Assembly (NCBI GenBank): GCA_020348445.1
Contig: CP070751.1
Coordinates: 4,588,960 to 4,652,959, forward strand
Length of the DNA: 64,000 nt
Direction of reading: 5' to 3'
Source of the DNA: Thermoplasmata archaeon
GTDB taxonomy: Archaea > Thermoplasmatota > Thermoplasmata > GCA-020350865
The position numbers and the translations under genes are program-made. This document shows, piece after piece, positions 31,229-59,760 of this stretch (within the stretch, counting starts at the first letter, position 1; every line of letters starts with the position of its first letter). A model generated the notes under the pieces. The model worked only from the letters and a program-made list of their open reading frames with translations. It was not told the DNA's origin and searched no databases.

Positions 31229-31515
31229 TAACGCTCATAATTCGTATACAATCTGCGGGAGTTAACGCTCACATTTCGTATACGAAGTAACGCTCACAGT
31301 TCGTAAAGGATTTGGGGGTCAACTCTCATATTTCGTAAATGGTTTTTCAGTTATAACGCTCATATTTTGTATACGAACTGTGGGAGTTGGTGAATCTGAA
31401 CATGGTGAAGATTTTTGGTGCACTGGCTCCGCCCTTGAAAATCCCGGAAAATTAGTGCTTTGTGGCCGCGCAGGGGGGGTATTACGATCCGTGGGAGGTG
31501 GGGGTGGTTTTGGTT
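31229..31515. repeat. Composite intergenic repeat copy 1 (TAACGCTC units plus C/D/E tail)
   Basis: Five TAACGCTC-type units of 34/25/32/34 nt then GCACTGGCT, ATCCCGG, GCGCAGGGGG, GTGGGAGGTGGGG; same order at 35501. Confidence 0.85.
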
Positions 31516-31673
31516 GCAGAGGCAGAGCGGTCACCTCATAAAAGTAATACGAATACGCATTAATAATTTTGGGGGATTAAACGGGTGGAAATCCTTTGTA
31601 AAGAACTGGACCTTTTAAACTAAAAGATTCTTAATTATATATGAGAAAAAAAACAAAATATATTTTCTTATCT

Positions 31674-32918
31674 CTATGATTTAGATATCATTTCTATAAG
31701 ATCTTTTGGAGTTAAAACCTCAACTTCTTCAGTTTGTACAGGAACCCGGGAGATCAATGCTTTTTTACAAATGAACTTTTCAGTATTTGTAATGAATTTA
31801 CTAACATCGCTTTTTTTTACCTTTTTTCTCCATTTGACCTCTCCAATAAATATCGGTTTTCTTCGCTTTGTAATAATGATGTCTATATCAAAATCTTTTG
31901 TCATATGGTATCTGAATGTACCATCAAGAAGTTCAGCCATAAGTTCGCCTAAGAAAAATTGAATGTGAATCGGTGCGCGCTCATCAAACACTTCTTTGAT
32001 TAAGGATGGTTTGTCAGCTTCTATATCATATTTCTCATCAAGGTAATAATAGAGCTCCATGATCTTCGATTTAACTGAATAATAATTTCCCCGCTTTTCA
32101 TAAAGCGGTATTCTTTCTATGAGATCCATATTCTCCATAATCCTTACATATGGCCTCACCAAAGAGGGATTATTAGCTTTTATTAGCTTCTTTGAAAATA
32201 GCTGGTCGCTAACCTTTTTCAATGTGTTTTTTCCATTGGCAATTGATCTTAGAACACCCTCATATACCTCAGATAAAAACCTGTCTTCTGCTAGGAATGT
32301 TTCCCCAATAAGAGCGGGAATCGCGTTTTTTGAAAATTCCATAACGTTCAATATTGTTTTTTCAGGAGTTTTATCTATATAACGTAATGCCCAAGGATCT
32401 CGGAGGTATGGCGATAGTGCAAGAGCATCCTCATGGCTAATTTCTTTTGAAAGAGAAGTAAAAATGTCACTGGGCGAAAGCACTGAAAGCTTAATCTCAG
32501 ATAAAAGTCCCAGAAGAGGGGACTTTTTTGAGGTAATTTCCTTTGCAACATGCATGGATGAACCAAGGAGTATGAGTTTTCCGTTAGGATAGCACATTTG
32601 AAGAGAATCAACAAAATCGTCAGGAAGTCTTTGGAACTCGTCTACTACGACTACCTTATCATTCTTTAGTTCATTGATCACCATTTCAGTAACCTGACTG
32701 TAATCGTCTGTTCTTTTTAGGGGTTCACCTGTAATAAGTGCACCGCCCCCTCTTTTCACAAGTATATAAACATCATGTTTGATGAAGTTCCTAACAAGAT
32801 ATGTCTTTCCAACTTTTCTCCTGCCGTATATCAACATCCAGCCCTTCGATTTCTTTACATTCTTCACTTCCTTACGAGGAACCGTGATTAGGGTAACCAT
32901 GGTTACGGGAATGGCCAT
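31674..32918 (-). CDS. Archaeal AAA-type ATPase with C-terminal PD-(D/E)xK-like domain
   Basis: GRRKVGKT Walker A, VVVVDEFQ Walker B, DIDII...IGEVKW. Confidence 0.85.
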   Translation of the reverse strand: MAIPVTMVTLITVPRKEVKNVKKSKGWMLIYGRRKVGKTYLVRNFIKHDVYILVKRGGGALITGEPLKRTDDYSQVTEMVINELKNDKVVVVDEFQRLPDDFVDSLQMCYPNGKLILLGSSMHVAKEITSKKSPLLGLLSEIKLSVLSPSDIFTSLSKEISHEDALALSPYLRDPWALRYIDKTPEKTILNVMEFSKNAIPALIGETFLAEDRFLSEVYEGVLRSIANGKNTLKKVSDQLFSKKLIKANNPSLVRPYVRIMENMDLIERIPLYEKRGNYYSVKSKIMELYYYLDEKYDIEADKPSLIKEVFDERAPIHIQFFLGELMAELLDGTFRYHMTKDFDIDIIITKRRKPIFIGEVKWRKKVKKSDVSKFITNTEKFICKKALISRVPVQTEEVEVLTPKDLIEMISKS

Positions 32919-32963
32919 TCCCCTATAAATAGGTTACTGTATCAAATCATGATTTTAGTGGTC

Positions 32964-33390
32964 TAGCACTCGTATTTCGTATGCCATTTTCGTGCGATAT
33001 CTCACGGATTTGGCACATGGAATTCATAATCCAACGCTCATATCTCGTATACCATCTGTGCGAGTTAACGCTCGTAATTGGTATACAATGTAACGCTCGC
33101 AGTTGGTAAAGGATTTGGGTGTCAACGCTCATATTTGGTATACCATTTGCGGGAGTTGGGAGGGGAAGTGAAATTAGTGGGCTTTGAGGTACTGGCTATC
33201 TTCATATTAAGTCAGGAAAAAGGCGGTTTTGGTGGCACACAGATGGGGTATGTGAGTTGATTTTGAAGGGAGTTACTGCCAATCGTGGGAAGTGGATTCG
33301 GTTGAGCGACCCAGAAAGGGGTATGTGTGTCGGAAATCTGGGGATTAGTGCCAGATTCGTGAGATGGGGGTGGTTTTTGGGCCCGGGAAA
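32964..33390. repeat. Composite intergenic repeat copy 2
   Basis: Same 34/25/32-nt unit series; GGGGTATGTG and GATTCGTGAGATGGGG modules. Confidence 0.8.
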
Positions 33391-33563
33391 GGGGGGTGAG
33401 GGAACTGCGTGGAAGAGTTGACAGTGTACAAGGTGGGTTGGTTAAGTTAAAAAAGGTGGAGGAAAAAGGTATAGGCTCTGAGAAAAAAATAGGTTCAGAC
33501 CCCCGATTAAATCTAAATATTCCCATCCAATTTCTAATAAAATAGAAAAAAAAGATAAAGGTT

Positions 33564-34508: not shown

Positions 34509-34699
34509 TCACCTCCTCCCTTTCTTAGGGTCTATCGGTATTTCTATCATCGCGCCCCACCTCGGTGCTATCCTCCCCATTTTTGTTTCATAAAGCCCCC
34601 TCGCCGCTCTTCCCTCTGTTTTTTCCTCTGAGGGATAGTAGTTGATGTACTTATAATCATTTATAATTTTGGTTTAATCAATTTAAAGTTTCAATTTTT

Positions 34700-34785
34700 C
34701 CGCGCTTGGTTTTTGAGCGCGCAAAAAGGGGCGTGTCGGTGGAGGAATGGGCAGTCAGGGAAACGGTGGAGGTGGGGGTTGAGGT
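34700..34785. repeat. Composite repeat copy 3 (module A only)
   Basis: GCGCGCAAAAAGGGGCGTGTCGGTGG at 34717-34742. Confidence 0.9.
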
Positions 34786-34865
34786 GAGATGGGTCCGGAT
34801 TTTGAAAAAATAAGGAAAAAGTATAAAAGCAAGGATACTCCTTAATATCTCTGGAAGTGACCGTT

Positions 34866-35090
34866 ATGGAAGGCAAGTTTACTGCTGTGTTTGAAAAGGA
34901 TGGGGAATGGTGGATTGGATACGTTGAAGAATTACCTGGAGCAAATACCCAGGGCAAGACATTAGATGAGGCTCGTGAGAATCTAAAGGAAGCCGTAGCT
35001 TTAGTTATAGAAGCAAATATAGAACTAACAAAACAAGAAATTGAGGGAAAGGAAGTCATTAGAGAGGAGCTATCGGTGGCTACTCAATGA
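34866..35090 (+). CDS. hicB: HicB-family antitoxin
   Basis: ELPGANTQGKTLDEARENLKEA motif; ATGA overlap with next gene. Confidence 0.88.
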   Translation: MEGKFTAVFEKDGEWWIGYVEELPGANTQGKTLDEARENLKEAVALVIEANIELTKQEIEGKEVIREELSVATQ

Positions 35091-35272
35091 AGCGGCGAGT
35101 CTTAATAAAGCATCTTAAAAAAAATAGGTGCAAATTTTTGCGTGAAGGTAAAAAACATACAATATATTTTAATCCAAAATTGAGAAAGGTATCAACGATT
35201 CCGCGGCATACAGAAATATCTGATAAACTTGCCAGAAAGATTTGTAAGGATCTTGGTGTGCCTCCTCTGTAA
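35087..35272 (+). CDS. hicA: HicA-family toxin
   Basis: Small basic protein, REGKKH and IPRH motifs. Confidence 0.88.
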   Translation: MKRRVLIKHLKKNRCKFLREGKKHTIYFNPKLRKVSTIPRHTEISDKLARKICKDLGVPPL

Positions 35273-35389
35273 TTTTTATTATAGCAATGTCCCAAGATAC
35301 TAAAAAAAATCCTTTATGGATATATATCATATTTTTTAAGAGGAAAATTCCATCTGCCACATATTCAATTTATTTTACGGTGGAAGGAG

Positions 35390-35815
35390 CGGTTTTTCGG
35401 GCGCGCAAAAAGGGGCGTGTCGGTGGAGGAATGGGCAGTCAGGGAAACGGTGGAGGAGGGTTACGAGTAGGGTTGGATTTTTGGGTAATAGATCAGGCAA
35501 TAACGCTCGTATTTGGTATACCATCTGTGCGAGTTAACGCTCACGATTGGTATACAATGTAACGCTCGCAGTTGGGAAAGGATTTGGGGGTCAACTCCCG
35601 TATTTGGGAAATGGTTTTCGGGATCTAGCGCTCATATTTGGTATACCATATGCAGGAGTTGTGGGATCAGGACCTGAAGATGGATTTTGGTGCACTGGCT
35701 CTGCCCCTGAAAATCCCGGAAAATTGTGCATTTTAAACCGCGCAGAGGGGGTATGTGCGTTGGAAATTGGAAGGATTTTACCAATCGTGAGAGGTGGGGG
35801 TGGTTTTTGGGGTTA
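35390..35815. repeat. Composite repeat copy 4 (most complete: A, five B units, C, D, E)
   Basis: Module A at 35401, TAACGCTC units from 35501, tail homologous to copy 1. Confidence 0.9.
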
Positions 35816-36036
35816 GAGGCCAGAACCTATGTGAAGACATAAAAGGTATTAATAAAATCTTGTGTTAAAAAAAATGTGAAAATCACAAAACACATTAACA
35901 ATAGAGATATTTTTTACCTTTACCATGAAATTGTTTATATATGTCATTTTGAATCCTGGTTATTAATATATAGAATTGAATCTGAATTAATATTAAACAT
36001 ACAATAATTACCACAGTCAAAATTATTGGTATTGTT

Positions 36037-37710: not shown

Positions 37711-37749
37711 CCCGAACCCACAACACAAAACTTGGGGTGGTGTATGTTT

Positions 37750-38035
37750 CAATCTATCTCACGGATTTGACACGCCATCTGCGGGGGTTAACGCTCGGAT
37801 TTGGCATGCCAACTGCGGGAGTTGAGAGTATTTGAAGTTTGAGACATTTTAGTACACTGGCTAGGTCCCTTTAATCCCGGGAAATATGCTGTTTTTCAGC
37901 CGCGCAGAGGGGGTGGGTGTGGTTGAAAACTGTTGGGTTTTACCAATCGTGAGTGGTGGGGGGGGTTTTGCTTGGCAAAAGGGGCAGGTAGCGAATCTAG
38001 GGAAGATCTGGTAGGTGATGTTGGGGTGGGGGTGG
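37750..38035. repeat. Composite repeat copy 5 (B, C, D, E, F)
   Basis: GGCATGCC unit, TAATCCCGGGA, GCGCAGAGGGGG, GCTTGGCAAAAGGGGCAGGTAGCGAATCTAGGGAAG also at about 48913. Confidence 0.85.
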
Positions 38036-38404
38036 ATTTGACAGCCTTACAGGCGGTAAAAGGGGTGGAAGCTTTGTGAAATAAAAGGTAAGAATTGAAG
38101 TGAGGTGAGAAAATATACATGTCGGTCTTGGTACTCCTCCAGTTTTAAATCAAGATAAAAAAAATATAATTAAAAGTTAAAAATATATTCAATTTATTAC
38201 ATTAAAATATTACCATTTCGAAAGAAATAAATATCCAGAACTCATTTGCGATTTCGATTGGAGGGAGACTAAGGAGTAGGTGGAATAAGATAAGCGAGGA
38301 CTTGAATTTATGAAAGTCATGAACTAGGGTTGACGGTCTCTTTATCTTTTTTCACAGTTCCTTTGATCCAATCTGTAGAAGGAATAGACGGGGGGAGATA
38401 GAAT

Positions 38405-40891: not shown

Positions 40892-41029
40892 AAATTGTAA
40901 TTGATTTGGTCGGAAACATTGGCACCTTAATTGTGGAATAAAAGACCAAGTGATTAAGAACATCACTTCAATCCTCTCTTTTATTTATTTTTCTATTTTT
41001 ATACTATTAAGATTTAAATCTAATTTTCT

Positions 41030-41690
41030 TTCTATCTCACGGATTTAGCATGCCAATGCACATCAGTTGAATCATCAATTAGAAGCTGTGCATCTATATG
41101 TAAATCATCTAAGTATAGTGTCATATCAATACAATAATTCACATGCCATCTGCGGGAGTTGTTGGATTATGCTTTGGAGCTAGATTCTGATGCACTGGCT
41201 GAGCCCTTTTAATCCCGGGATTTGGGGACTTTTCTGGATGCGCAGGTGGGGTATGTGTGATGGAATTTGATGGGTTTTTGCCAGATTCGTGAGGTGGGGT
41301 GGATTTTGGGGTTTGTTGGGCGCGCAAAAAGGGGCGTGTCGGTGGATTGGGAGGTCAGGGGAAACGGTGGATGTGGGTTACGGGAATGGTTGGATTCTCA
41401 GATAGTTGAGCAGGCTTTATCTCACGGATTTGAATTCCGTTTTCCTGGGGTTACCCCTCGGATTCCGGATCCACAGTGCACGTTAGTTCAGGTAACAATT
41501 ACATTCGTGCACGTGAGTTTAAATTACCTGTGGATTTTCGGGCTTACCCCCCGGATTTCGGATCCGGTTTGAGGGGGTTAGCACTCGAATTTCGGATAGG
41601 GCCAGTGGATTTAGCTGTGTGTTTTCTTGGAGGATTTTTACGGGATTCGTGAGGTGGGTGGGGTTTTGCTTGGCAAAAGGGGTGGAAGAA
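41030..41690. repeat. Composite repeat copy 6 (about two tandem diverged cycles)
   Basis: B-C-D-E then module A at 41320, then diverged B units with GGATCC cores, E and partial F. Confidence 0.85.
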
Positions 41691-41918
41691 GTGCTTCCCC
41701 AATTAAAAAGTGAAAATCAGGAGAATGAAATTGTTTTTTAAAATGGGATAAAAAGGGCAAAGCTTTTTGGGAAATATGGAATGGTTTTGTCAGACCTCAA
41801 TTATCAATAAATCAGTAACCAAAAATCTTTAAAATAACAAATAGTATAATGTTGGAAGGTATCCTGATAATATTGTGTAACGAAGAATCATAACAATCTA
41901 AAGAGGGAGTTTGATAAA

Positions 41919-45368: not shown

Positions 45369-45411
45369 TGATCATCCGCCAAATTCCCTTGGATAATTTG
45401 GGATTATGGCT

Positions 45412-45480
45412 TTGGTTTTTGAGCGCGCAAAAAGGGGCGTGTCGGTGGATTGGGAGGTTAGGGGAAACGGTGGAGGTTAG
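45412..45480. repeat. Composite repeat copy 7 (module A)
   Basis: Exact 26-mer core at 45423-45448. Confidence 0.9.
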
Positions 45481-45524
45481 GCTTGGGGTGAATTACGGAG
45501 GAGTAAAAGACAAAAGAAAAAAAG

Positions 45525-46620: not shown

Positions 46621-46654
46621 ATGAGTAAGGAGTTACTTAAATGTATTGGTAGCT

Positions 46655-46845
46655 ATTATCTCTCATATTTGGCATGCCATCTGCGGGAGTTGGGTGATCT
46701 AGGATTGATGTTGGAATCTTGTGCACTGGCTAAGACCTATTAATCCCGGGATTTTGGGGGATTTTACGCAGAGCAGAGGGGGTATGTGTGGTGGTTTTGA
46801 TGAGGGTTAGTGCCATCTGTGGGAGGTGGGGTGGGTTTTGGGCGC
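46655..46845. repeat. Composite repeat copy 8 (B, C, D, E)
   Basis: ATATTTGGCATGCCATCTGCGGGAGTT, GCACTGGCT, TAATCCCGGGA, GCAGAGGGGGTATGTG. Confidence 0.85.
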
Positions 46846-47052
46846 TCTGTGAAGCTTTGTGAATTCTTTTTATCCGTGTAACCGAGAAAAAAGACTATAT
46901 AAAAAGGGGGTCAGGGGGATTTCTCCCCCTGGACGTTTATCAATAATTTTTAAACGGGATTAAAAGATTGTAATCCCTTGTAAGATGGTGTTCCCAGGGG
47001 AAGCCCACGCAATATATTTAAGGTGATAGATTATTTATTTTATGGAGCAACT

Positions 47053-47490: not shown

Positions 47491-47564
47491 ACGGATAATT
47501 AAGTTTGAAATGGTACAGGTTGGTTACGAGAAGGATTTGATTCTTATGATTGATTAGAGAATAA

Positions 47565-47765
47565 GGCTCATATTTTGTACACTATCTGTGCGAGTTAGCG
47601 CTCATATTTTGGATAGAGCCATTGGTTCGAACTGACGATACTTGTTAGGGGTTTATACGATCTGTGAGAGGTGGGGACAGTTTTTTGGGGCGCGCAAAAA
47701 GGGGCGTGTCGGTGGAGGAATGGACAGCAAGGGGAAACGGTGGAGGTTGGTTACGGGTGTGGTTG
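47565..47765. repeat. Composite repeat copy 9 (B, E, A)
   Basis: GAGTTAGCGCTCATATT unit, GTGAGAGGTGGGG, exact module A core at 47690. Confidence 0.85.
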
Positions 47766-47821
47766 ATATATAGTTAAGATTCCTAGGAGAATGTGGATGC
47801 ACTATGAGGAAGGAAAAAGTA

Positions 47822-48172: not shown

Positions 48173-48596
48173 ATTTTAAATCCCCTGTTCAATGATGATG
48201 TACCAAACAATATTTTTTAAATCTATCGTCTCTCCTTAGCGATTAGTTTCCACCAAATCCTCAACCTTATCTTGGTTGAATATATCAACCTTATGATGCT
48301 TAAATCTATGGCCTTCGCAATTCCCGACCTAGAACCAAATTTTGGTATTGTCTGACCATTGAAAGCTGGTATTGGGAGAGGGTTTTATATTGGAACATAA
48401 AAGCTTTCGTGGGTTTTTCACCAACCGCAAACTGAATTCAGACCACCGACCGTATATTTAACGGGTTTTAGCTTTACCAACCGCATAATTAATATGGATC
48501 TACCGGATCGCCTGCCGTATATTTAATGGCGCCAGAGGGATTGTAAATCTAGTTTTTAGGTAGGGTTTTTAATTTTGCGGTCGGTGGGTTGATTGT

Positions 48597-48985
48597 GAGC
48601 GCGCAAATTCGGGTGTGTCGGTGGAGGAATGGACAGCCAGGGAAACGGTGGAGGGGGGTTACGAATGTGGTTAGACTTTTGGATAATTGAGCAGGGAATA
48701 ACGCTCATATTTGGCATGCCATCTGCGGGAGTTAACGCTCATATCTTGTATACAATGTAACGCTCACAGTTGGTAAAGGATTTGGGTGTCAACGCTCATA
48801 TTTGGTATACCATCTGTGGGAGTTAGCGCTCATATTTCGTATAGAGCCAGTGGGTTGAGCTGATGATATTTTTTAGGTTTTGTACGATCCGTGAGAGGCG
48901 GGGGCGGTTTTTGCTTGGCAAAAGGGGCACGTAGCGAATCTAGGGAAGATTCGGTAGGTGATGTAGGGGTGGGGGCGGTTTTTTG
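48597..48985. repeat. Composite repeat copy 10 (A variant, B x5, E, F)
   Basis: GCGCGCAAATTCGGGTGTGTCGGTGG, unit series as in copies 2 and 4, module F as in copy 5. Confidence 0.88.
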
Positions 48986-49092
48986 GTCTCTGCGGGGGTT
49001 TGGGAATTCTTTCTGTCCGATCAGCCGACAAGGGAAGTCATAAAAAAAAAGTTGGCCTATGTTAATCGGGAATGGAGTTGTGAGCAATCCTC

Positions 49093-51611: not shown

Positions 51612-51772
51612 CGGTGACGGCAGGATTCGAACCTGCATGCCCCCGAAGGGACCTGGATATTTGTGGCAAAGACTCCATTCCATCGAATGCATTCGATTCT
51701 GGTGAGCCATAGCATTCTGTTGAATACCATAAGCATTCAAATCCAGTGCGTTTGCCATTTCGCTACGTCACC
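51612..51772 (-). tRNA. tRNA-Ser(TGA) with 77-nt intron at 37/38
   Basis: GGTGACG/CGTCACC acceptor, G73, CTGGA-TTTGAA|A-TCCAG, long variable arm, TTCGAAT; BHB imperfect. Confidence 0.7.
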
Positions 51773-51777
51773 AAATG

Positions 51778-51850
51778 CGCTCCCGATGAGATTCGAACTC
51801 ACGTTGCCTGGTCGAAAGCCAGCCATGCTTGACCTCTACATTACGGGAGC
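51778..51850 (-). tRNA. tRNA-Glu(TTC)
   Basis: GCTCCCG/CGGGAGC acceptor, loop CTTTCGA, TTCGAAT. Confidence 0.85.
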
Positions 51851-51857
51851 ATTATAG

Positions 51858-51931
51858 AGATGGGGGTGAGACTTGCACTCACAATCATCTGATCTGCAGT
51901 CAGAGGCATTCTCTATTTCTGCCAACCCATC
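51858..51931 (-). tRNA. tRNA-Cys(GCA), atypical D and T loops
   Basis: TCTGA-CTGCAGA-TCAGA, U73; T-loop TGCAAGT, D-loop lacks GG. Confidence 0.75.
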
Positions 51932-51934
51932 ATC

Positions 51935-52011
51935 TGGTAGGTGTGCCGGGATTTGAACCTGGAATAACCACCTTGTAAGGGTAGCTGCATTACCTGCAAT
52001 GCTTCACACCC
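51935..52011 (-). tRNA. tRNA-Val(TAC), CCA encoded
   Basis: Loop CTTACAA, TTCAAAT, A73-CCA. Confidence 0.8.
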
Positions 52012-52405
52012 CCCACGATCTCACATGTTCTGCGTAAGGGTGAGAAAGTATCAGCTCAAGGTTCTGCTCCGCAATGAGCACGATCCATAGGAAAAAGAGG
52101 ATTAAAGCCTCGATGTCCTGTTTTGGATGTAATTCTTCCTTTGTAAGTTGAGCCTTGATTTCCCTGAGCTTCTTTTTGTTTCTATGATATCCTATCTTCG
52201 TTTCGGCATGGATTTTGAAGTGGCACCCTCTGCACTTAATCACTGTGTTTTCCAGTGTGTCCAGTCCACCTCTTTTCTTTGGGATCTTGTGATGAATCGT
52301 CAGGTTCTGAGTTATTCCACATTCCGTGCATTGATTGTAATCAAGGACAAGCCTCATTCTCTTAAGAAGAGGCCTTGGTAGTTCCTCTTTCATGTTGTAC
52401 TTCAT
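52004..52405 (-). CDS. HNH endonuclease within tRNA array
   Basis: CxxC...IHHKIP...GG...N....CxxCH..IH; GGTGA RBS before ATG 52405; stop overlaps tRNA-Val 5' end. Confidence 0.85.
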   Translation of the reverse strand: MKYNMKEELPRPLLKRMRLVLDYNQCTECGITQNLTIHHKIPKKRGGLDTLENTVIKCRGCHFKIHAETKIGYHRNKKKLREIKAQLTKEELHPKQDIEALILFFLWIVLIAEQNLELILSHPYAEHVRSWGV

Positions 52406-52429
52406 TTTTTTCACCCTTTCATCTGGGAG

Positions 52430-52503
52430 TGGAATCGGGTGGATTCGAACCACCAGCCTTCTCCTTGCAAGGGAGATGCTCTTTCCAGTTGAGCTACGAT
52501 CCC
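52430..52503 (-). tRNA. tRNA-Ala(TGC)
   Basis: Canonical cloverleaf, G3:U70, loop CTTGCAA. Confidence 0.93.
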
Positions 52504-52507
52504 ATGA

Positions 52508-52675
52508 TGGTGCAGGAGGTAGGATTCGAACCTACGATGTTAGCCCTATGGCGACAGATTTCCCAGAGCAAGTCTTTGAGTTTACTCACCTAAGTTTGCT
52601 CACCTTTAAGTTTGAGCCTCAGAAGAGCGTACCCTTCTTAGTCTGCCCTCTTCGACCATGCTCAAGCACTCCTGC
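52508..52675 (-). tRNA. tRNA-Leu, anticodon AAG as written, 76-nt intron at 37/38, CCA encoded
   Basis: Archaeal Leu-type D arm and variable arm, A73; GCAGA-CTAAGA|A-TCTGT; 7+7 nt BHB geometry. Confidence 0.75.
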
Positions 52676-52683
52676 GTATGAGG

Positions 52684-52755
52684 TGCAAGATACGGGAGTC
52701 GAACCCGTCTCACCTGCTTGGAGGGCAGGTATGTCGCCTCCAACACCTATCTTGC
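52684..52755 (-). tRNA. tRNA-Gly(TCC) with C33
   Basis: CCTGC-CCTCCAA-GCAGG, TTCGACT, perfect acceptor. Confidence 0.8.
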
Positions 52756-52763
52756 ATATGATA

Positions 52764-52835
52764 TGCGCCCGGAGAGCTTCGAACCCTCTTTTCCTCGCTG
52801 GCTACGAGGTAGTCTACCCATTGACTTACGAGCGC
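52764..52835 (-). tRNA. tRNA-Gly(GCC) with A33
   Basis: CCTCG-TAGCCAG-CGAGG; T-loop TTCGAAG; identity less certain. Confidence 0.65.
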
Positions 52836-52850
52836 AGAAGAAAGACCAAA

Positions 52851-52948
52851 TAGGCGTGGGGGGATTCGAACCCCCAATCTCCCCTTTATCAGAAGGGTGC
52901 GTTGACGGCTCATAAGACCGTTGCGATGCCAGGTTACGCCACACGCCT
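52851..52948 (-). tRNA. tRNA-Ile(GAT) with 24-nt insertion forming a second TAT anticodon-like arm
   Basis: AGGCGTG/CACGCCT acceptor, CCCTT-CTGATAA-AGGGG, insert 52903-52926. Confidence 0.75.
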
Positions 52949-52955
52949 ATTCTGA

Positions 52956-53055
52956 TAGTGCCGGGAGGATCCGGCCCTCCATTACCAAGTTTCTTTTAAG
53001 GTCTGTAAACATTCCAAAATCAAAGCCTGGAGTGTTACCATTACACTACGGCACT
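52956..53055 (-). tRNA. tRNA-Gln(TTG) with 29-nt intron at 37/38
   Basis: A1:U72, CCAGG-CTTTGA|A-CTTGG, BHB helix CTTT/AAAG; abnormal T-loop GCCGGAT. Confidence 0.75.
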
Positions 53056-53111
53056 GAAGAAGAAAGATAGAACTAGGACATAGAAGAAGACAAAAGAGAA
53101 TCTTTTTTCCC

Positions 53112-53214
53112 ACCATATCCTAATAAAATCCTTCTTACAGCAAATGGTCTATCTGACCGACAGCTGCGGATGAGAGGAGCACCGAGCTCCGCGTCTCACC
53201 TAATAGGATATGGT
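53112..53214 (-). ncRNA. Candidate structured RNA (multibranch) downstream of internal promoter
   Basis: 11-bp closing stem 53112-53122/53204-53214 with two inner hairpins; strand inferred from TATA at 53244-53252. Confidence 0.5.
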
Positions 53215-53243
53215 ACATTAGCTTCCCCGTATGTAAGAAGTTA

Positions 53244-53252
53244 TATTTATAA
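53244..53252 (-). promoter_or_regulatory. Putative TATA box for third tRNA sub-operon
   Basis: TTATAAATA on minus strand about 30 nt before the structured RNA. Confidence 0.45.
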
Positions 53253-53290
53253 TTTGCAGTTGATTTTGGATTTTTTTATTTCTAATAAAA

Positions 53291-53364
53291 TGGAGAGGAT
53301 GGGATTCGAACCCATGACGACCGGTTCTTCAAACCGGCGAACTCCCATGCTGTTCTACCTCTCC
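53291..53364 (-). tRNA. tRNA-Phe(GAA)
   Basis: Fully paired cloverleaf, loop TTGAAGA. Confidence 0.92.
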
Positions 53365-53369
53365 ATGAA

Positions 53370-53441
53370 TCTGCCCCGGGAGATTCGAACTCCCTCATCA
53401 TGGTCTACAGCCATGCATGCTACCATTGACATCAGGGGCAG
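53370..53441 (-). tRNA. tRNA-Tyr(GTA), archaeal type
   Basis: C1:G72, A73, short variable loop, loop CTGTAGA. Confidence 0.88.
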
Positions 53442-53448
53442 TAAAAAA

Positions 53449-53573
53449 TGAGCCTGGAGGGATTCGAACCCCCGATCTTTCGGATTTCTTCCATTAGAGC
53501 TAAATTCGGATCAGCATAGTAAGTTCTAATGCTAAGAGTCCGCTGCTCTAATTCCTAGCTGAGCTACAGGCCC
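53449..53573 (-). tRNA. tRNA-Lys(CTT) with 47-nt intron at 37/38
   Basis: GCGGA-CTCTTA|A-TCCG; BHB with 7-bp intron stem CATTAGA/TCTAATG. Confidence 0.88.
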
Positions 53574-53577
53574 ATAA

Positions 53578-53653
53578 TGGCGGTAGGGGCCGGACTTGCA
53601 CCGACGTTGGCCTGATTAACAGTCAGGAACCATAGCTTCTCGGCCACCCTACC
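53578..53653 (-). tRNA. tRNA-Asn(GTT), atypical D and T loops, CCA encoded
   Basis: CCTGA-CTGTTAA-TCAGG, G73-CCA; T-loop TGCAAGT, D-loop lacks GG. Confidence 0.8.
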
Positions 53654-53672
53654 AAATCGAATTAGTAAAAAA

Positions 53673-53769
53673 TGGGAAGTGCAGGATTTGAACCTACATC
53701 CAGTGGAATCTTTATTTCTTTAAAAAAACACCCAAACCACCGAGTCTATCCAGGTTAGCCTAACTCCCC
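53673..53769 (-). tRNA. tRNA-Pro(TGG) with 23-nt intron at 37/38
   Basis: GGTGG-TTTGGG|T-CCACT, AT-rich intron hairpin, TTCAAAT. Confidence 0.8.
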
Positions 53770-53789
53770 AAAACAAGTAAGAAAATACC

Positions 53790-53869
53790 TGACACTAATC
53801 CAACACGTTTCGAATCCAAGCCCTATGGCCTAAAGGGCTTATTTGGTTTATATGTTGATGTTTGTGTCA
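53790..53869 (-). ncRNA. Candidate rod-like hairpin RNA downstream of internal promoter
   Basis: Nested stems TGACAC/GTGTCA, CAACA/TGTTG, AAGCCCT/AGGGCTT. Confidence 0.5.
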
Positions 53870-53894
53870 TAAGCGCAGTGTATGTTAGTTTTGT

Positions 53895-53902
53895 TATATA
53901 AA
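53895..53902 (-). promoter_or_regulatory. Putative TATA box for second tRNA sub-operon
   Basis: TTTATATA preceded by A-rich BRE-like run; predicted start about 53871. Confidence 0.5.
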
Positions 53903-54025
53903 ATTTTTTAAGAACCAGCAAGGAAATTCGAAAGTCAGAAACATAGCCTCCGCTAACCCCATTGTCCGATTTATATTTTTGATACATCATGTGTATCTGT
54001 GGGCCTTAATTAGGGCGAATGAAAG

Positions 54026-54158
54026 CGCCCACCGAGGGACTCGAACCCCCACAAACCAGATATCTCCAGAGCGATAATAACGGATATAGAAGTATCACCT
54101 TCCGTAGTTTCACCTTCCTTTCAGGAATCTGGTGCACTATCCATTATACTAGGTGGGC
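54026..54158 (-). tRNA. tRNA-Arg(CCT) with 60-nt intron at 37/38
   Basis: CCAGA-TTCCTG|A-TCTGG, BHB helix TTCC/GGAG, A20 in D-loop, G73. Confidence 0.85.
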
Positions 54159-54165
54159 ATATGAG

Positions 54166-54240
54166 CGGTCAGGAGGGGATTTGAACCCCTATCAAAGGAG
54201 TGACAGTCCAGTATGCTAACCTGTTTTACACCACCTGACC
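54166..54240 (-). tRNA. tRNA-Asp(GTC)
   Basis: Loop CTGTCAC, G73, TTCAAAT; anticodon stem only 3 bp. Confidence 0.75.
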
Positions 54241-54246
54241 ATTAGA

Positions 54247-54315
54247 TGGGTTGGATAGGATTTGCACCCATGTTGGCGGTTTTGGAGACCGACGTATTCT
54301 GGCATTGCTCAACCC
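54247..54315 (-). tRNA. tRNA-Trp(CCA) with reduced D-arm
   Basis: CGGT-CTCCAAA-ACCG; T-loop TGCAAAT; only about 69 nt. Confidence 0.6.
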
Positions 54316-54322
54316 ATGAGGA

Positions 54323-54393
54323 TGGGAAAAGTAGGAATCGAACCCACAATAAGAGAGTCACAGTCTCCCGGTTTACCATTAACCTATTTCCCC
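54323..54393 (-). tRNA. tRNA-His(GTG), atypical acceptor end
   Basis: GGAGA-CTGTGAC-TCTCT, GGTT/AACC D-stem, TTCGATT; A73 rather than C73. Confidence 0.75.
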
Positions 54394-54442
54394 TTCACGA
54401 ATCTTTTAAAATAATCTGATGAGCTTCCTTTTTTTAAGTAGA

Positions 54443-54514
54443 TAACGAGAGGGGAATCGAACCCACCAACATCGGGTCATGGGCCCGACGGTTTTCCAAT
54501 TAGCCTATCTCGAT
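54443..54514 (-). tRNA. tRNA-Met(CAT), initiator-like
   Basis: A1:U72, three G:C pairs TCGGG/CCCGA, loop CCCATGA (C33); irregular T-stem. Confidence 0.75.
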
Positions 54515-54532
54515 ATGCAGAACTTAAAAAGA

Positions 54533-54607
54533 AGCCACCGGCGGGAATCGAACCTGCGTGGTCTTTCTTACAAGGAAAGTGCAAAAGCCAACATTTGCTA
54601 CGGTGGC
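54533..54607 (-). tRNA. tRNA-Thr(TGT)
   Basis: GCCACCG/CGGTGGC, U73, CTTTC-CTTGTAA-GAAAG. Confidence 0.9.
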
Positions 54608-54619
54608 AGAAAGTTCGAG

Positions 54620-54686
54620 CTACATCAGAAAATTATTGCGAGTGCGTGGCCTTCGTCTATGCCACTTTCTCGTATCTGTGATGTAG
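54620..54686 (-). ncRNA. Candidate rod-like hairpin RNA at head of tRNA array
   Basis: Nested stems CTACATCA/TGATGTAG, CGAG/CTCG, GTGGC/GCCAC. Confidence 0.5.
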
Positions 54687-54732
54687 TTATTCATGTTACC
54701 ACCGAATTAAGCATCGGTTATGTAAGATATGG

Positions 54733-54748
54733 TATTTAAATTTACCGA
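54733..54748 (-). promoter_or_regulatory. Putative BRE/TATA promoter of the tRNA array
   Basis: Minus strand TCGGTAAA-TTTAAATA upstream of first tRNA. Confidence 0.6.
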
Positions 54749-54757
54749 AAGGTAAAA

Positions 54758-54808
54758 GATATTACATCCACGCCAAGACAAAATATGAGTGGGAAGTTCC
54801 ATTGTGAG
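54758..54808 (+). pseudogene. Orphan 3' end (about 16 codons + stop) of a NosD-gene paralogue; right copy of the 51-bp repeat
   Basis: Encodes YYIHAKTKYEWEVPL* versus YYIHAKTKCEWEVPL* at 51474; 4 of 5 differences synonymous. Confidence 0.8.
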
Positions 54809-54861
54809 TTTTTTAGAAAAAACCAACAGTTCCCCATCCAATCCAATCTCTTAGTCGTCAT

Positions 54862-55005
54862 TGGGCGCGCAAAAAGGGGCTTGTCGGTGGATTGGGAGGT
54901 CAGGGGAAACGGTGGAGATGGGTTACGGGTAGGGTTGGATTTTTTGGTGATTGATCAGGCAATAACGCTCGTATTTCGTATACAATCTGCGGGTGTTAAC
55001 GCTCT
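54862..55005. repeat. Composite repeat copy 11 (A plus B units)
   Basis: Module A variant at 54865, TAACGCTC units from 54963. Confidence 0.88.
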
Positions 55006-55059
55006 TATCCTGTCAATAATATATTGTAATTGAAAGAATGAGGGAAATATTATAATGAA

Positions 55060-57528
55060 TCACTGGTGATTCTGAAATATCCCCTTCGTCTCTTCTAAAT
55101 CCCGAAATAAATCAATACTTTCTCTAGCAATAATTGGACTATTACCAATTAATTGGCGAGCTTTTGCCAACTCGTTCAATCGTTTCTTTCCTTCAGCTTT
55201 TTTTAACGTATTGATTAAATTACCCTTATTTCTTTCTTCGTTAAAGAATTCTAAAAGAGTCTTAGAATAATATAAGTAGGTTTCCAATTCTTCCCTTTTT
55301 ACTGATTTAATATCGTCCCTTTCAAAATCCTCTTCCATCTTTATCCCGCATCCTAAACCACAATCAGTTCTGTTCAATAAATCAAGAAGTGATTTCCAAT
55401 TATCCTTTAATTTTAATTTCCTTTGTAACATTAAGATATCATGAAGTAATTGTGTTTCGTCGAGGGATTTCGGTAATGGCATGATTTTCTGGTCCGCATT
55501 TTCGTGTTTATATGCTCCCGACACATCTTGACTTTTATATGATTTAAATATAGCTTCTAATTTTTTTTCCAAATCTTTTTTTACCAATTCAAATGTTACT
55601 GTTGAGAGTGTTTTAGGTTCCTTTTCAATAAGTTCATATGAATCCCTACACTTTCGAATATAATCTCGAGCCAAACCACCGGACATACAATAATTTAAAG
55701 CTGAAAATGGAATTGGTGTGCCAATCACTCTCCTTTTTAATAGGTTTTTCGCTTCCTCAAAATTCAGATAATTTACCTCAATTATTTCGTTAAAAGAACT
55801 GTCAAACGTATCACGAAACGGTAACCCTCGTTGTTCAAACCGGGTAGCTGCACTCTCCGATACCGAAATCAAATAGTAGCAATTATATAAGTGAAATAAA
55901 GCCTTGATATCATTTAAGAAATTCTCCGCTTTTTCAGGTGGTGAGATCTTATCCATCTCATCAATTCCAATAATCACCTTGTATTTATTTTGTGTTAATA
56001 ATGTAATGAAATTTCTGTAATCGTCGATAATGTCGGGCACACTTCTTTGATTTACTGAATATGAAATAGCCTTGTGTTCACCTATATCAACCCCCATTGG
56101 CAATTTAAGTGAACCAGACCAGCCAGAAGTATAAGATAGTTGATATTTTATATTGTCGATATTTTCAATAGCTTTATCCATAATTTCATTTCCAACCTTT
56201 GTTCTCATTGAAGATTTTTTGATATAATAATATGTTAGAATAAATAACACAAGATAAGGAATAGAAATAAAATAGATCCAAGATGGTATCTGTAATAATT
56301 CAAAGCTAATAATATCACCACTAAGATATGTAGATGTAAGTAAAACGGCCGTTAAAGTTAATGTTATTAACATGAAAACTCTCATAGTTGTTTGGGTCAA
56401 TGGATAATAGCGAGTGTGTATTTGTAGATCTCTTCGCAATTCGGATGGAATTTCAACTTCTCCTATAAGCTCTTGAAAATGATGAAATATTTTTTCACGA
56501 GTTTGTTTGGCAAGTTTACGTATTTCAATTGGTGATTTTAGATATTCTAATAGGAGAGCTTTTTGGCAAATCTTTTTAAATATATGCAAAATAAAATCAC
56601 GGGCATCATAATCAATAGGTGCTGAAGTCATCAGTCTTAACACTTTATTATCCAGGTCTTCGACATCCTTTGCAACATCTCCTTTGCATATCTTTCTTAT
56701 CAGAGTTGATTTACCAGATCCACGAGGCCCTGATATCCCGATTGCTGCGCCTTCCATTCCGTCAATTTTCTTTTCAAGTTGAGATATAGATTCTCTTGGG
56801 GTTATATATTTAGGATTGAAAACTTCTGTTAATTTGTCAGTTTTTCTACTTTCCATGGTCACTTCATAGGAGGGTTCGGATAAATCATCAATTATTATTC
56901 TTATTTCTGGTTTTATTCCTTCATTTATGATTTCTTTTCTGGTTCCATCAACATTTTCACTTATTATATCTATTTTCAGTTCGCGTCTCATATCTTCTTG
57001 GAATTGTTCTTTTTCACGGACATACTTCTTTCTAAATAATTGATTTGCTATAAGAAATTGAATTACTATGATAATATATATGCCAAAAATTACAAAACCA
57101 GGATATCTAATGAACCATTCGATCGTTGGAGAAAAGCCAGAAAGAATCGTTGATAAAAGAAAACCTGTTATAAATATTATTCCTGCAATTATTATTGCTG
57201 TTTTTAATAGATCAAATAGAAATATAAAACTGGAATGAGGAGGTTTTACGTTTAATAATTCTGCCTTTCTTTCTGACAATAATTTTTTATTCACAATATA
57301 CTTTCTATAATAACTATCACAAGCTTCTGTAAATACATCTTTCCTATTTTCAATACTTAAATCAAAACTTTCTTGTGAAAAATCACCTTTTTCCACCCCT
57401 CTCTTTATCGCCTCACTGATTTCAGGTTCTCTGAGAGCTTCATTTTTAAAAATTTCCCACTCTTGTGAGGTCATTTGTGGTATTTGACCATCCTTCCTAC
57501 CCTTTTTTATAATTTCAGGACCTGGCAT
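55060..57528 (-). CDS. Membrane-associated KAP-like P-loop NTPase
   Basis: GISGPRGSGKST Walker A, TM pair inserted before VIIGIDEMDK Walker B; GGGTGA RBS before ATG 57528. Confidence 0.75.
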   Translation of the reverse strand: MPGPEIIKKGRKDGQIPQMTSQEWEIFKNEALREPEISEAIKRGVEKGDFSQESFDLSIENRKDVFTEACDSYYRKYIVNKKLLSERKAELLNVKPPHSSFIFLFDLLKTAIIIAGIIFITGFLLSTILSGFSPTIEWFIRYPGFVIFGIYIIIVIQFLIANQLFRKKYVREKEQFQEDMRRELKIDIISENVDGTRKEIINEGIKPEIRIIIDDLSEPSYEVTMESRKTDKLTEVFNPKYITPRESISQLEKKIDGMEGAAIGISGPRGSGKSTLIRKICKGDVAKDVEDLDNKVLRLMTSAPIDYDARDFILHIFKKICQKALLLEYLKSPIEIRKLAKQTREKIFHHFQELIGEVEIPSELRRDLQIHTRYYPLTQTTMRVFMLITLTLTAVLLTSTYLSGDIISFELLQIPSWIYFISIPYLVLFILTYYYIKKSSMRTKVGNEIMDKAIENIDNIKYQLSYTSGWSGSLKLPMGVDIGEHKAISYSVNQRSVPDIIDDYRNFITLLTQNKYKVIIGIDEMDKISPPEKAENFLNDIKALFHLYNCYYLISVSESAATRFEQRGLPFRDTFDSSFNEIIEVNYLNFEEAKNLLKRRVIGTPIPFSALNYCMSGGLARDYIRKCRDSYELIEKEPKTLSTVTFELVKKDLEKKLEAIFKSYKSQDVSGAYKHENADQKIMPLPKSLDETQLLHDILMLQRKLKLKDNWKSLLDLLNRTDCGLGCGIKMEEDFERDDIKSVKREELETYLYYSKTLLEFFNEERNKGNLINTLKKAEGKKRLNELAKARQLIGNSPIIARESIDLFRDLEETKGIFQNHQ

Positions 57529-58039
57529 TTTTCTCACCCTTCCTAAATCTTGATAATTTATTATTACCCAAGCCAGGATGTAAGATCAACATCCTATCGT
57601 TTCTAATTTTATACTTAATCCTTCCTTACCTACAGGGATATCCAATGTCTTCCTTACACCCTATCAACCCGATAGAGCATTAATATAATATTATAAAAGT
57701 ATATCGTTCATTTTAAGAAATACTAGGTGTTTGAATAATAGTGTTTTATAATAGGCTGTACTCCCCTCTCCTCACAAACTCCACAGCCTCCTCATCCCTG
57801 AGCATCTGCTGCCTGATCTTATGCTTGACATGGCTATTATCTGGACGGAGGTCTGGGGCCTATCAGGGGAGGTGTACAGCTCCTTGGGGTGAACTGGAGA
57901 GGTGGGTTACGAGACTGGTATATGTGTGTTAGGGATTAGAGGAGGTGACTTTTTGGGAAAGGATTTTTATCTCTGTATAATCGAAGCCTTTTAATATCTA
58001 TAACTCATTTAATATTCTACTGAAAAGGGAGGGTATAAC

Positions 58040-59620
58040 ATGAGTTACTGCACAAATTGTGGAACAAAATTAACTGAGGATTGGGATTTTTGCAGCGAGT
58101 GCGGTGAAAAAATAGCTAAATCAATAGTACACCCGCCACCACCTCCACCCCCACCCCATTCCAATCTCGAGGATGAAGGAGTCCAGAGCAGAGAAAAATC
58201 CACAATACCTGTTGCTTTACCAACTCCACCTCCTCCACCCCCTCCACAGCTACAACCAATTCAACCAACTCAACCCCCTCAATACCAACCCCAATACCAA
58301 TATCCCATGGTAGCCCCAGTTGCAGAAAGGCAAAAGTCAAGAGGACCGATATATGCAATTGTAGCAATAGTTGTAGCAATTGTGGTCTTATTTGCTTTCA
58401 TGAACCTAATAGGGCCAGGAATTAATTATAATCCTTTTTCGGAGGATACTGAAAATAAAGATAGAGACGGGGATGGATACAACAACGATATAGATGCTTT
58501 TCCGGACGATCCCAATGAATGGGAAGATACAGATGGTGACGGTATCGGTAACAATGCCGATACCGACGATGACAATGACGGTTTTTCAGATAGCGAAGAT
58601 ATTTTCCCTTTAAAGGACGTAGGAATCCAAATTAAATTAACTGGTTTTGAAATTGTTGATCCAATTGATTTCTGGGATTCTTATGGTGAAGTTTATTTCC
58701 ATGTATATATAAATGATAGATTCGAGGGAAAAATCGATAATGACGGTGCCACATGGTCTGCATTGCAGGGAAGTTACTACACAATCGATGTATTTTTACC
58801 TTATAATGTTAATGATAATCAAGCAAACACGAAAATAAATATACAGATGTGGGATGATGATTTATTTGATGACGACCTTGTAGATATTGATGGACTTGAT
58901 GAGACTCATGGTTTAACAGTCACATATGATCTATCAAGTGGTCAATGGACTGGCGATGACGATGATGGATACACAGATGGAAGTGATGATGGTACACAGA
59001 ATTCAGATGATGACGATGGCATATTATCATACAGTATTGAAAATTATGATGTAACCTACAATAAAGTTTTTAATTGGATGTATAGTAATAAAGACTTTGA
59101 ATTATCGGTGAATATTCCTCCAGACCTTTATGCATATTATAGTTCACTCCCAAGAACCAGTGATGAGGCATCTTATGTCACATCTGATGATGAGGTTGTT
59201 TCTGAGATAGCCACACTACTTCTTCAAAAAGCTGATGATGAAGGTTACGATTATTATGGGACTGTAAATTTTGTATTAAGATTTGTTCAGAGTATCGAGT
59301 ACACTGCTGATAATGTAAGCACTGGAATGAATGAATATTGGAGATATTCAGTAGAAACTTTGGTAGATGAAAATGGAGATTGTGAAGACACTTCCATCTT
59401 ATTCGCCTCGTTAATGGAAGCTATGGATTATGATGCGGTATTACTTTTACCAACAGGTCATGCGGCAGTTGGAATTTATGGAACAAGTTATAATGGATGG
59501 CGTGTAGAATATCAAGGTAAGGAATATTTCTACTGTGAAACCACAGCTGAGGGATGGGAAATGGGAGAAATGCCTGAAGAATATGAGAATGAAGAAGTGG
59601 ATGTTATTCAAGTCGAGTAG
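58040..59620 (+). CDS. Zinc-ribbon/Pro-rich membrane protein with DxDxDG repeats and transglutaminase-like Cys protease domain
   Basis: CTNCG...CSECG, poly-Pro, TM, TSP3-like repeats, GDCED...GHAAVG...YCETT. Confidence 0.8.
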   Translation: MSYCTNCGTKLTEDWDFCSECGEKIAKSIVHPPPPPPPPHSNLEDEGVQSREKSTIPVALPTPPPPPPPQLQPIQPTQPPQYQPQYQYPMVAPVAERQKSRGPIYAIVAIVVAIVVLFAFMNLIGPGINYNPFSEDTENKDRDGDGYNNDIDAFPDDPNEWEDTDGDGIGNNADTDDDNDGFSDSEDIFPLKDVGIQIKLTGFEIVDPIDFWDSYGEVYFHVYINDRFEGKIDNDGATWSALQGSYYTIDVFLPYNVNDNQANTKINIQMWDDDLFDDDLVDIDGLDETHGLTVTYDLSSGQWTGDDDDGYTDGSDDGTQNSDDDDGILSYSIENYDVTYNKVFNWMYSNKDFELSVNIPPDLYAYYSSLPRTSDEASYVTSDDEVVSEIATLLLQKADDEGYDYYGTVNFVLRFVQSIEYTADNVSTGMNEYWRYSVETLVDENGDCEDTSILFASLMEAMDYDAVLLLPTGHAAVGIYGTSYNGWRVEYQGKEYFYCETTAEGWEMGEMPEEYENEEVDVIQVE

Positions 59621-59691
59621 TAGGTTTTTTCTACTGTTCCCTATTGGGGTTTACAGAGAAATGAGATTTGTAACAGATAACTTGGTTTATA

Positions 59692-59760
59692 AGGCGCGCA
59701 AAAAGGGGCGTGTCGGTGGAGGAATAGGCAGTCAGGGAAACTGTGGAGGTGGGTTTCGAG
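59692..59760. repeat. Composite repeat copy 12 (module A)
   Basis: Exact 26-mer core at 59694-59719. Confidence 0.9.

Follow-up and report, generated by a model that had tools for sequence, protein, structure and literature searches.

The 64-kb stretch of DNA analyzed here (hereinafter the window; positions 4,588,960 to 4,652,959 of contig CP070751.1, assembly GCA_020348445.1) comes from a metagenome-assembled genome (MAG) of a Thermoplasmata archaeon and, in its right half, contains an array of accessory genes separated by copies of a composite, co-oriented repeat. This region is part of a chromosomal flexible island, the spacers of which are built from genus-specific polar repeat modules. 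The layout of the array, its polarity, the restriction of the repeats to one genus and the accessory character of the cargo are direct observations, as is the polarity-preserving reordering of near-identical cassettes in a sister array. With moderate confidence, we interpret the polar repeats as cassette boundaries at which gene units loop out and reinsert by recombination. Specifically, we infer that two copies in the same direction would recombine such that the intervening gene or genes leave as a circle carrying one hybrid copy of the repeat; this circle, or else linear DNA acquired from a relative, would then re-enter at any other copy. The reaction could be either ordinary homologous recombination between the repeats or the action of a dedicated site-specific enzyme on an invariant core found in one of the modules, denoted A. 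Given that both entry and exit would proceed via direct repeats, the direction of the repeats would stay constant whatever the direction of the enclosed genes; the cassettes would retain their polarity as their order and neighbors change. Excision and insertion of circles at direct repeats would thus account for a polarity that is blind to gene direction, whereas regulatory elements follow genes and miniature inverted-repeat transposable elements (MITEs) take either orientation. A literature search yielded no published description of such a system in Thermoplasmata or other Archaea.

Polarity, Architecture and Distribution of the Repeat Modules

The MAG (denoted G000) consists of 353 contigs, with 100-N joins between them, and is 82% complete; the window is the final 64 kb of a 115-kb contig, and its end falls at the contig end, within a repetitive gene. 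The comparison included four sister genomes of the same genus (G001 to G004, that is, five genomes in total) and, in the search for the repeat family, 56 other Thermoplasmata genomes. The spacers of the window were run by blastn against the whole MAG and overlapping matches were merged into intervals, which resulted in 12 intervals in the window (31200-31540, 32950-33470, 34690-34800, 35380-35820, 37740-38120, 41020-41700, 45400-45500, 46650-46860, 47507-47770, 48580-49020, 54850-55013 and 59670-59770), all on the plus strand, and none before 31.2 kb. An earlier note on this DNA had described twelve repeat-bearing spacers between 31.2 and 59.8 kb, all in the plus orientation regardless of gene direction, and none in the first 31 kb; this description is fully reproduced. 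The genes of the array run in both directions, with about nine on the plus strand and about eight on the minus strand. The 26-mer GCGCGCAAAAAGGGGCGTGTCGGTGG, singled out in the same note, is indeed present in six exact copies (34717, 35401, 41320, 45423, 47690 and 59694), all on the plus strand, against an expectation of 0.00 from 100 shuffles; the two variants that had been reported, at 54865 (plus strand) and 48599, carry one and four mismatches, respectively, and the latter was recovered in the genome scan at position 4637558. GC skew in the window tracks gene direction, and the GC content of the array contigs is about the same as that of the rest of the MAG.

The mosaic order that had been proposed is borne out when 21 long copies are aligned: an A module of about 90 nt, a short linker, up to five B units, a D block, an E block, and then A or F. 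The copies are 60-94% identical to one another. The D block (about 90 nt) contains a AATCCCGGGATT-type palindrome and is replaced by an X block in some copies, and the E block is G-rich, with a T5 run at its end. The A module is G-rich, C-poor and non-palindromic, with a sharp left edge located between GGG and CGCGCAAA and with upstream sequences that are unrelated between copies. Among the 19 aligned copies of A, a 26-nt core and a further block show no variation; both blocks end with CGGTGGA and are about 30 nt apart. The 10-13 nt between the invariant blocks and the 3' part of the module are variable, and the A copies come with two alternative 3' ends.

The B unit is 34 nt long, with periods of 34, 25, 32 and 34. 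The units are imperfect dyads with compensatory changes (pair 2-33 is AT in 16 units and TA in 13, and pair 16-19 is TA in 32 and CG in 14), three positions are kept unpaired, and folding as RNA somewhat favors the G+T-rich plus strand over the minus strand (-7.9 vs. -5.8 kcal/mol; better in 38 of the 54 units). Given that the B units are related copies rather than independent ones, the p-values obtained for them are overstated. Separately, two B units are split in the exact palindromic center by an insert of about 85-90 nt (window positions 41056-41140 and approximately 7420-7510 of G003:C92, L014), which has an internal GTGCAC-type hairpin, with ATGCCA or ATAC repeated on both sides, and is represented in G001 by copies that are 85-94% identical; this insert could be a tiny element targeting the B dyad.

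In the MAG, the family is found on 10 of the 353 contigs, with a single strand per contig, 13 and 12 intervals on the two largest contigs and one to three on the others. Among the loci fetched from the sister genomes, 16 contained a match (11 of these with at least two copies), and the one-strand rule holds in all 16. All four sister genomes possess the family, in contrast to none of the 56 other Thermoplasmata genomes that were searched. The opposite picture considered in the earlier note, in which copies would be scattered genome-wide between core genes, in both orientations and with syntenic modules between them, is at odds with this confinement to a few contigs, one strand on each, and with the non-syntenic cargo (see below). 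In a collection of genomes from 185,579 species, the A core motif was detected in only one archaeal genome beyond this MAG, the sister genome G004; the eight further matches are single ones, in GC-rich bacteria. One metagenome match to the A core was discarded, as it has no blastn match to G000 and resembles unrelated GC-rich sequence. A sequence-only model of the A module recovered 21 copies in the MAG, all on the plus strand and confined to two contigs; in the sister genomes, it recovered a single copy in G003 and three copies in G004, the latter co-oriented on one contig of 4 kb. A was thus found in three of the five genomes of the genus, G002 being one of those in which it was not.

The mean identity of neighboring A copies is 0.747, compared to 0.758 over all pairs (permutation p 0.86), and A copies often find their closest partner in the other array; only the pair that flanks the hicBA genes stands out among the neighbors. 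These observations point to mixing across the island rather than to growth by tandem duplication in place. The possibility raised earlier of a locally amplified non-autonomous element is accordingly disfavored with respect to tandem duplication, and the same identities rule out a general rule by which neighboring A copies would be more alike, either through local duplication or as att-like pairs.

Cassette Cargo of the Two Linked Arrays and Reordering in the Sister Array

Shuffling of cassettes is seen in the sister array of the MAG, that is, the second array that contains A modules. Cassettes of this array (2340358-2340984, 2342003-2342753, 2342915-2343617 and 2344789-2345841) recur in G003 and G002 at 89-92% nucleotide identity, with a weaker G002 copy at 83%, compared to 68-76% identity for the core DNA of the same genomes; three annotated shared cassettes encode a MaoC dehydratase, a MazE-like pair and a NYN nuclease. 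In G003:C337, two of the shared cassettes are present in swapped order but with the polarity kept, separated by a different, nucleotidyltransferase-type cassette and bounded by G-rich modules of the G003 flavor, and in G003:C92, a third shared cassette has different neighbors. The homology of the shared cassettes ends about 15 nt short of the next repeat module in both genomes, this module being A in G000 and a B array in G003. On all sister contigs with several matches, the pieces lie on the same strand relative to the plus polarity of G000.

The cargo of the window array is accessory. Pfam matches and a tRNA search agree with the cargo types named in the earlier note (HicBA, MNT-HEPN, ATPase-nuclease, KAP NTPase, surface proteins and a tRNA array): we identified hicB/hicA, HEPN and nucleotidyltransferase genes, an AAA_14/DUF234 ATPase (AAA_14 gene at 31674-32918) and a KAP NTPase, as well as a C-type lectin protein, a CAAX protease and four NosD/beta-helix/fn3 surface proteins. 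The two A copies that flank hicBA are identical over 56 nt and then diverge to a loose likeness. Identity between the tRNAs of the array and those with the same anticodons elsewhere in the MAG is only 52-65% (Ala-UGC, Phe-GAA, Pro-UGG and Met-CAU), and no counterpart of the tRNA array is present among the matches listed from the four sister genomes. Given the low identity to the chromosomal counterparts, the tRNA cargo looks foreign, and sequence comparison suggests that this tRNA set is possibly derived from a virus or plasmid.

To the left of the array, the window is collinear with G001 and G003 between 9 and 24.5 kb, at 64-79% nucleotide identity. The synteny with G001 ends at 24488, at an insertion sequence (IS), and no collinearity with the sister genomes was found to the right of it. 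Three cassette proteins that were searched in the sister genomes gave best matches of 25-47% amino acid identity, compared to 62-87% for neighboring core genes, and most of the cassette proteins of the window have no paralog in G000. A candidate "empty site" for hicBA or for the lectin cassette in G002 was rejected, given that the lectin-like piece there has a different, core context.

The IS encodes an rve-family DDE transposase with a helix-turn-helix (HTH) domain, so that the earlier statement that the window contains no recombinase was wrong in the letter. It sits exactly where the synteny with the sister species stops, has a copy in G002:C76 that is 83% identical, and looks like an ordinary element outside the array, a bystander. 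The last 98 bp of contig c2273153, which carries the second A array, match window positions 24598-24695 at 100% identity; contig c2549252 begins with 99 bp that are 100% identical to positions 25499-25597, in the same orientation as the former overlap; in G001, the genes to the left of the IS run straight into the orthologs of c2549252. One of two layouts holds: either there is an island between two IS copies, or the second array continues via the IS into the window array and the join at 24.6 kb is wrong. With either layout, both A arrays share one polarity. The contig of the second array is chromosomal, its anchors being collinear with G001 at 154-167 kb.

Several findings weigh against the interpretation of the repeats as boundaries of mobile cassettes. 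Mobility is demonstrated for the cassettes of the sister array and not for those of the window, for which no second context was found at high identity. The modules that flank a shared cassette differ between species, being A in G000 and B or D/E-like in G003, and some adjacencies between genes and composites are conserved between species at a core-like divergence, which implies that a part of the family is old and stationary. No crossover point was mapped at the repeats, and searches of the MAG detected no tyrosine, serine or HUH recombinase on the array contigs. Finally, the IS is a node with two entries and two exits, so the contig is possibly mis-joined at 24.6-25.6 kb. Thus, of the earlier proposal that the repeats are recombination sites for shuffling or capture of modules, the polarity, the accessory nature of the cargo and the changed cassette order of the sister array speak in its favor, and the uniqueness of the window cassettes and the lack of a linked enzyme and of a mapped crossover limit this support.

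Alternative Explanations and Comparison with Known Systems

A special case of cassette exchange at the repeats is a dedicated site-specific system in which a putative enzyme reads the invariant core of A and excises and integrates the cassettes, much like IntI at attC, although the site would be of another kind; we regard this as a tentative possibility, on the doubtful side. The invariance of the 26-nt core and the second block, amid variable intervening and 3' sequences, the sharp left edge of A and the strict polarity are compatible with such a system, the identity of the hicBA flanks followed by divergence is an attL/attR-like pattern, and the A copies with two alternative 3' ends resemble hybrid sites; the core and the hicBA flanks, in particular, favor a site-specific reaction. 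Conversely, the differences in flanking modules between species and the absence of an enzyme favor homology, and the data also fit homologous or illegitimate exchange; furthermore, cassettes are shared with G002, in which A was not found. With regard to candidate enzymes, two partial matches to PF00589 (tyrosine recombinase) in the MAG, at 1864225 and 2412539, are on small contigs with a tRNA gene and no array, and all five copies of Y1_Tnp (HUH) and the single Resolvase are on contigs without an array; with a completeness of 82%, the MAG could lack an enzyme that was left unassembled. Genes for AAA_14 ATPases show enrichment in the vicinity of the composites (four of the eight strong ATPase copies lie within 4 kb of one, and a repeat match is present on both sides in three G000 loci), and the starts of two PD-(D/E)XK genes (G000 1324880-1325848 and 1321467-1322231, L060) are each 20-280 bp away from the B end of a composite; one of these arrangements is conserved in G003:C92. 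The geometry is not conserved in G001 and G002, and we therefore treat both kinds of genes as cargo; in particular, the AAA_14/DUF4143 ATPase, which was considered as a candidate for the enzyme or for the center of an autonomous element, is best viewed as frequent cargo. With the same reserve as above, the locus might represent a new archaeal cassette platform, in which a dedicated recombinase acting on a non-palindromic polar site of about 90 nt would move toxin-antitoxin, defense, surface-protein and tRNA-array cargo between the species of the genus.

The repeats would be unlikely to represent a non-autonomous mobile family, akin to MITEs or to repetitive extragenic palindromic (REP) elements and bacterial interspersed mosaic elements (BIMEs), that inserted into an already variable island and created the appearance of cassettes as a by-product. 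Such a family would account for the BIME-like modular make-up, the sharp edges of A, the imperfect dyads of B with their compensatory changes, the insert at the exact center of a B unit and the 91% identity of one composite between species with core DNA that is about 70% identical. However, no terminal inverted repeats or target site duplications were seen around A or the composites (in the flank listing and alignment, by eye), the family is limited to a few contigs rather than genome-wide, and one orientation per contig is unexpected from transposition unless it is strand-coupled. REP sequences are short imperfect palindromes that are extragenic and found genome-wide, alternate in orientation within BIMEs and, as REPINs, are associated with RAYT transposases. 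The mosaic extragenic combinations and the imperfect dyads of the B units, with their conserved mismatches, are similar; in contrast to REP/BIME, the copies here are polar and found in a few islands only, with the Y1 (HUH) genes, of the IS200/IS605 type, located off the array contigs. A link to these genes was rejected, given that the B-like matches on the Y1 contigs are not significant (E 0.58 and 9.3).

An explanation that we consider even less credible is that the modules are cis-acting expression signals, such as terminators, operator arrays for dimeric regulators, or promoters and leaders, that spread by duplication along with the large family of NosD/fn3 surface-protein genes and have no role in recombination. 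At the E/A junction, GC-rich palindromes are bordered by T5 runs on both strands, so that transcripts could end there from either side; the 34-bp B units are dyads, and several minus-strand genes begin 20-60 bp away from the B end; membrane-anchored proteins that end in tandem winged-helix domains are encoded near composites; and a separate leader of NosD genes recurs within the MAG (for both, see below). However, the minus-strand T5 is missing in six of the 20 A copies, five of the 12 copies in the window precede the 3' end of a minus-strand gene, composites on other contigs are antisense to large genes, and the enrichment of the winged-helix proteins is weak. The interpretation of A or the composite as a structured RNA was likewise rejected: the composite fold has z-scores of -0.6 (plus strand) and -1.0 (minus strand), and Rfam gave nothing at the gathering threshold or at E<=1.

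To our knowledge, among the systems that store and rearrange single-gene cassettes, only integrons are well understood; these rely on the folded attC site and one integrase family. An attC site, about 55-140 nt in length, consists of an imperfect inverted repeat (R''-L''...L'-R') and adopts a single-stranded DNA (ssDNA) fold with extrahelical bases. An integron must have the IntI tyrosine recombinase heading its array, whereas a cluster of attC sites lacking an integrase (CALIN) need not. The array described here resembles sedentary chromosomal integrons and CALINs in its co-oriented repeats, cassettes of one or two genes, toxin-antitoxin and other accessory cargo, inversion of some cassettes and the presence of shared cassettes in a different order in other species. 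Integron cassettes are short and promoterless; the cassettes here, however, range from 0.7 to 5 kb, and because many of them face the other way, these must carry their own promoters. The array differs in that the boundary repeat is not attC and does not fold, no IntI or other tyrosine recombinase is linked, the spacers are often long mosaics, and the cassettes include surface proteins of 800-1300 amino acids and a 3-kb tRNA array. The ssDNA fold of A (-1.9 to -4.8 kcal/mol; z-scores of 0.23, -0.13, -0.01 and -0.44, both strands) is no better than expected by chance, the B units are only 34 nt long, with several per spacer, and a single B copy folded with DNA parameters is equivalent to shuffles (z-score of -0.13); no tyrosine recombinase accompanies the arrays in this incomplete MAG. 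Although integrons and CALINs have been reported in Archaea (Ghaly et al., 2022, PMC9668308), we consider it extremely improbable that the locus is a true integron or CALIN. The cluster is also distinct from clustered regularly interspaced short palindromic repeats (CRISPR), in which identical short repeats recur every 55-75 nt with unique spacers between them: the copies are 0.7-6 kb apart and enclose genes, the B units abut without spacers, and there is no Rfam CRISPR match.

An assembly or binning artifact, with collapsed repeats or mis-joined contigs such that the array would not be one contiguous locus, is highly improbable as well. The fragmentation of the MAG, the IS node and the end of the window in a repetitive gene are compatible with such an error; nevertheless, the divergent copies are embedded in unique sequence, so that the 31-60 kb region is not a collapse, and the same family and polarity rule are found in four independently assembled genomes, with array contigs that match the MAG in GC content.

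We regard the arrays of Neisseria intergenic mosaic elements (NIMEs) as the closest functional analog of the archaeal repeats, a likeness of kind rather than membership by sequence. NIME arrays combine dRS3 and RS repeats, have inverted repeats of 20 bp as their basis and lie near surface-protein genes, partly at conserved positions; it has been proposed that they facilitate the exchange of adjacent genes through either homologous or site-specific recombination (Bentley et al., 2007, PMC1797815). Common features are the genus restriction, the non-coding mosaic structure of intergenic arrays, the proximity to surface-protein genes and the conserved position of a part of the arrays; the end of the homology of shared cassettes about 15 nt from a module edge fits the same type. 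Unlike NIMEs, for which that report does not mention a polarity rule, the modules here are strictly co-oriented, delimit whole cassettes that are reordered, share neither sequence nor the dRS3 motif, and belong to an archaeal host. There is also similarity to the additive flexible genomic islands of marine bacteria, in the chromosomal site, the strain-specific cassettes beside conserved flanks and the envelope and defense cargo. In the marine bacteria, the usual anchors are tRNA genes or integrons with known integrases, whereas the anchor here is a private repeat family. If homologous recombination suffices, the repeats would be an archaeal counterpart of the NIME arrays and would show how sediment archaea vary their surface and defense genes; if a dedicated recombinase is involved, an integron-like function would have been assembled from unrelated parts, which would amount to a new recombination system and a possible tool. 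With either mechanism, the genus appears to reach an integron-like outcome with a non-folding repeat and no integrase in sight, and the locus offers concrete, testable junctions.

Features of the Window and Additional Observations

The repeat copies and the other principal features of the window are listed in Table 1. In addition to the 12 merged intervals, the table includes a distant, thirteenth member of the family.

Table 1. Coordinates of repeat copies, selected cargo and the IS in the window
Feature	Positions	Strand	Evidence or remarks
IS with rve DDE transposase and HTH	24598..25597	+	ORF 24664-25590, Pfam rve 2.7e-16
Composite copy 1: five B units, D, E	31229..31530	+	Spacer blastn, copy alignment
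Composite copy 2: B units, D-like, E doubled	32960..33470	+	Spacer blastn, copy alignment
A module, left of hicBA; first 56 nt identical to the copy at 35401	34714..34800	+	
hicB-hicA cassette between two A modules	34857..35272	+	Pfam HicB-like, HicA_toxin
Fullest composite: A, linker, five B units, D, E	35398..35815	+	G003:C113 copy 91% identical
Composite: two B units, D, E, F	37750..38110	+	Spacer blastn, copy alignment
Double composite: B split by ~85-nt insert, D, E, A, variant B units, X, E, F	41030..41700	+	
A module 3' of fn3/NosD gene (stop 45368)	45420..45500	+	
Composite: B, D, E; 35 bp from start of minus-strand MNT gene	46655..46850	+	
Composite: B, X, E, A	47555..47770	+	
Composite: A (variant 26-mer), four B units, X, E, F	48596..49010	+	
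tRNA array, one cargo unit between repeat copies	51612..54607	-	Includes intron-bearing tRNAs
A module, linker, two B units	54862..55010	+	
Distant family member (13th): C-rich, then G-rich module, terminal GGTGGGTTACGAG	57746..57960	+	Copies 78-94% identical in arrays of G001, G002 and G003
A module between Zn-ribbon gene (stop 59620) and NosD/fn3 gene (start 59952)	59691..59775	+	

Apart from the composite repeats, two other conserved non-coding stretches were noticed. An AT-rich leader of 220-300 nt is located upstream of NosD-family genes (window 38144-38364; G000 2326913-2327132 and 2339022-2339341; L015 7807-8105) and is a separate repeated module tied to this family, 85-87% identical within the MAG and 67% identical in G003. 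A 174-nt stretch with two TATATTTAA-type boxes (window 48424-48597) is 85% identical to positions 1405-1578 of G003:C302 (L068); being located upstream of a small minus-strand cassette in both species, it is probably the cassette's own promoter region.

Some composites are accompanied by genes for exported proteins (CARDB/PKD, NosD, PepSY) with two C-terminal winged-helix domains (HTH_HVO_0163_N and MarR), in particular, at window positions 25668-27377 and in G000 at 3022537-3026118 and 1392440-1393903. About 28 such proteins are encoded in the MAG, of which four are within 8 kb of composites; given this weak enrichment, the possibility that these membrane regulators bind the B units was rejected. 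Immediately to the left of the array, at 28401-31160, the window encodes a 919-amino acid protein, nearly all of which is taken up by about 40 copies of a YadA-head-type repeat with a 42-nt period, a repeat type that is unusual in an archaeon.

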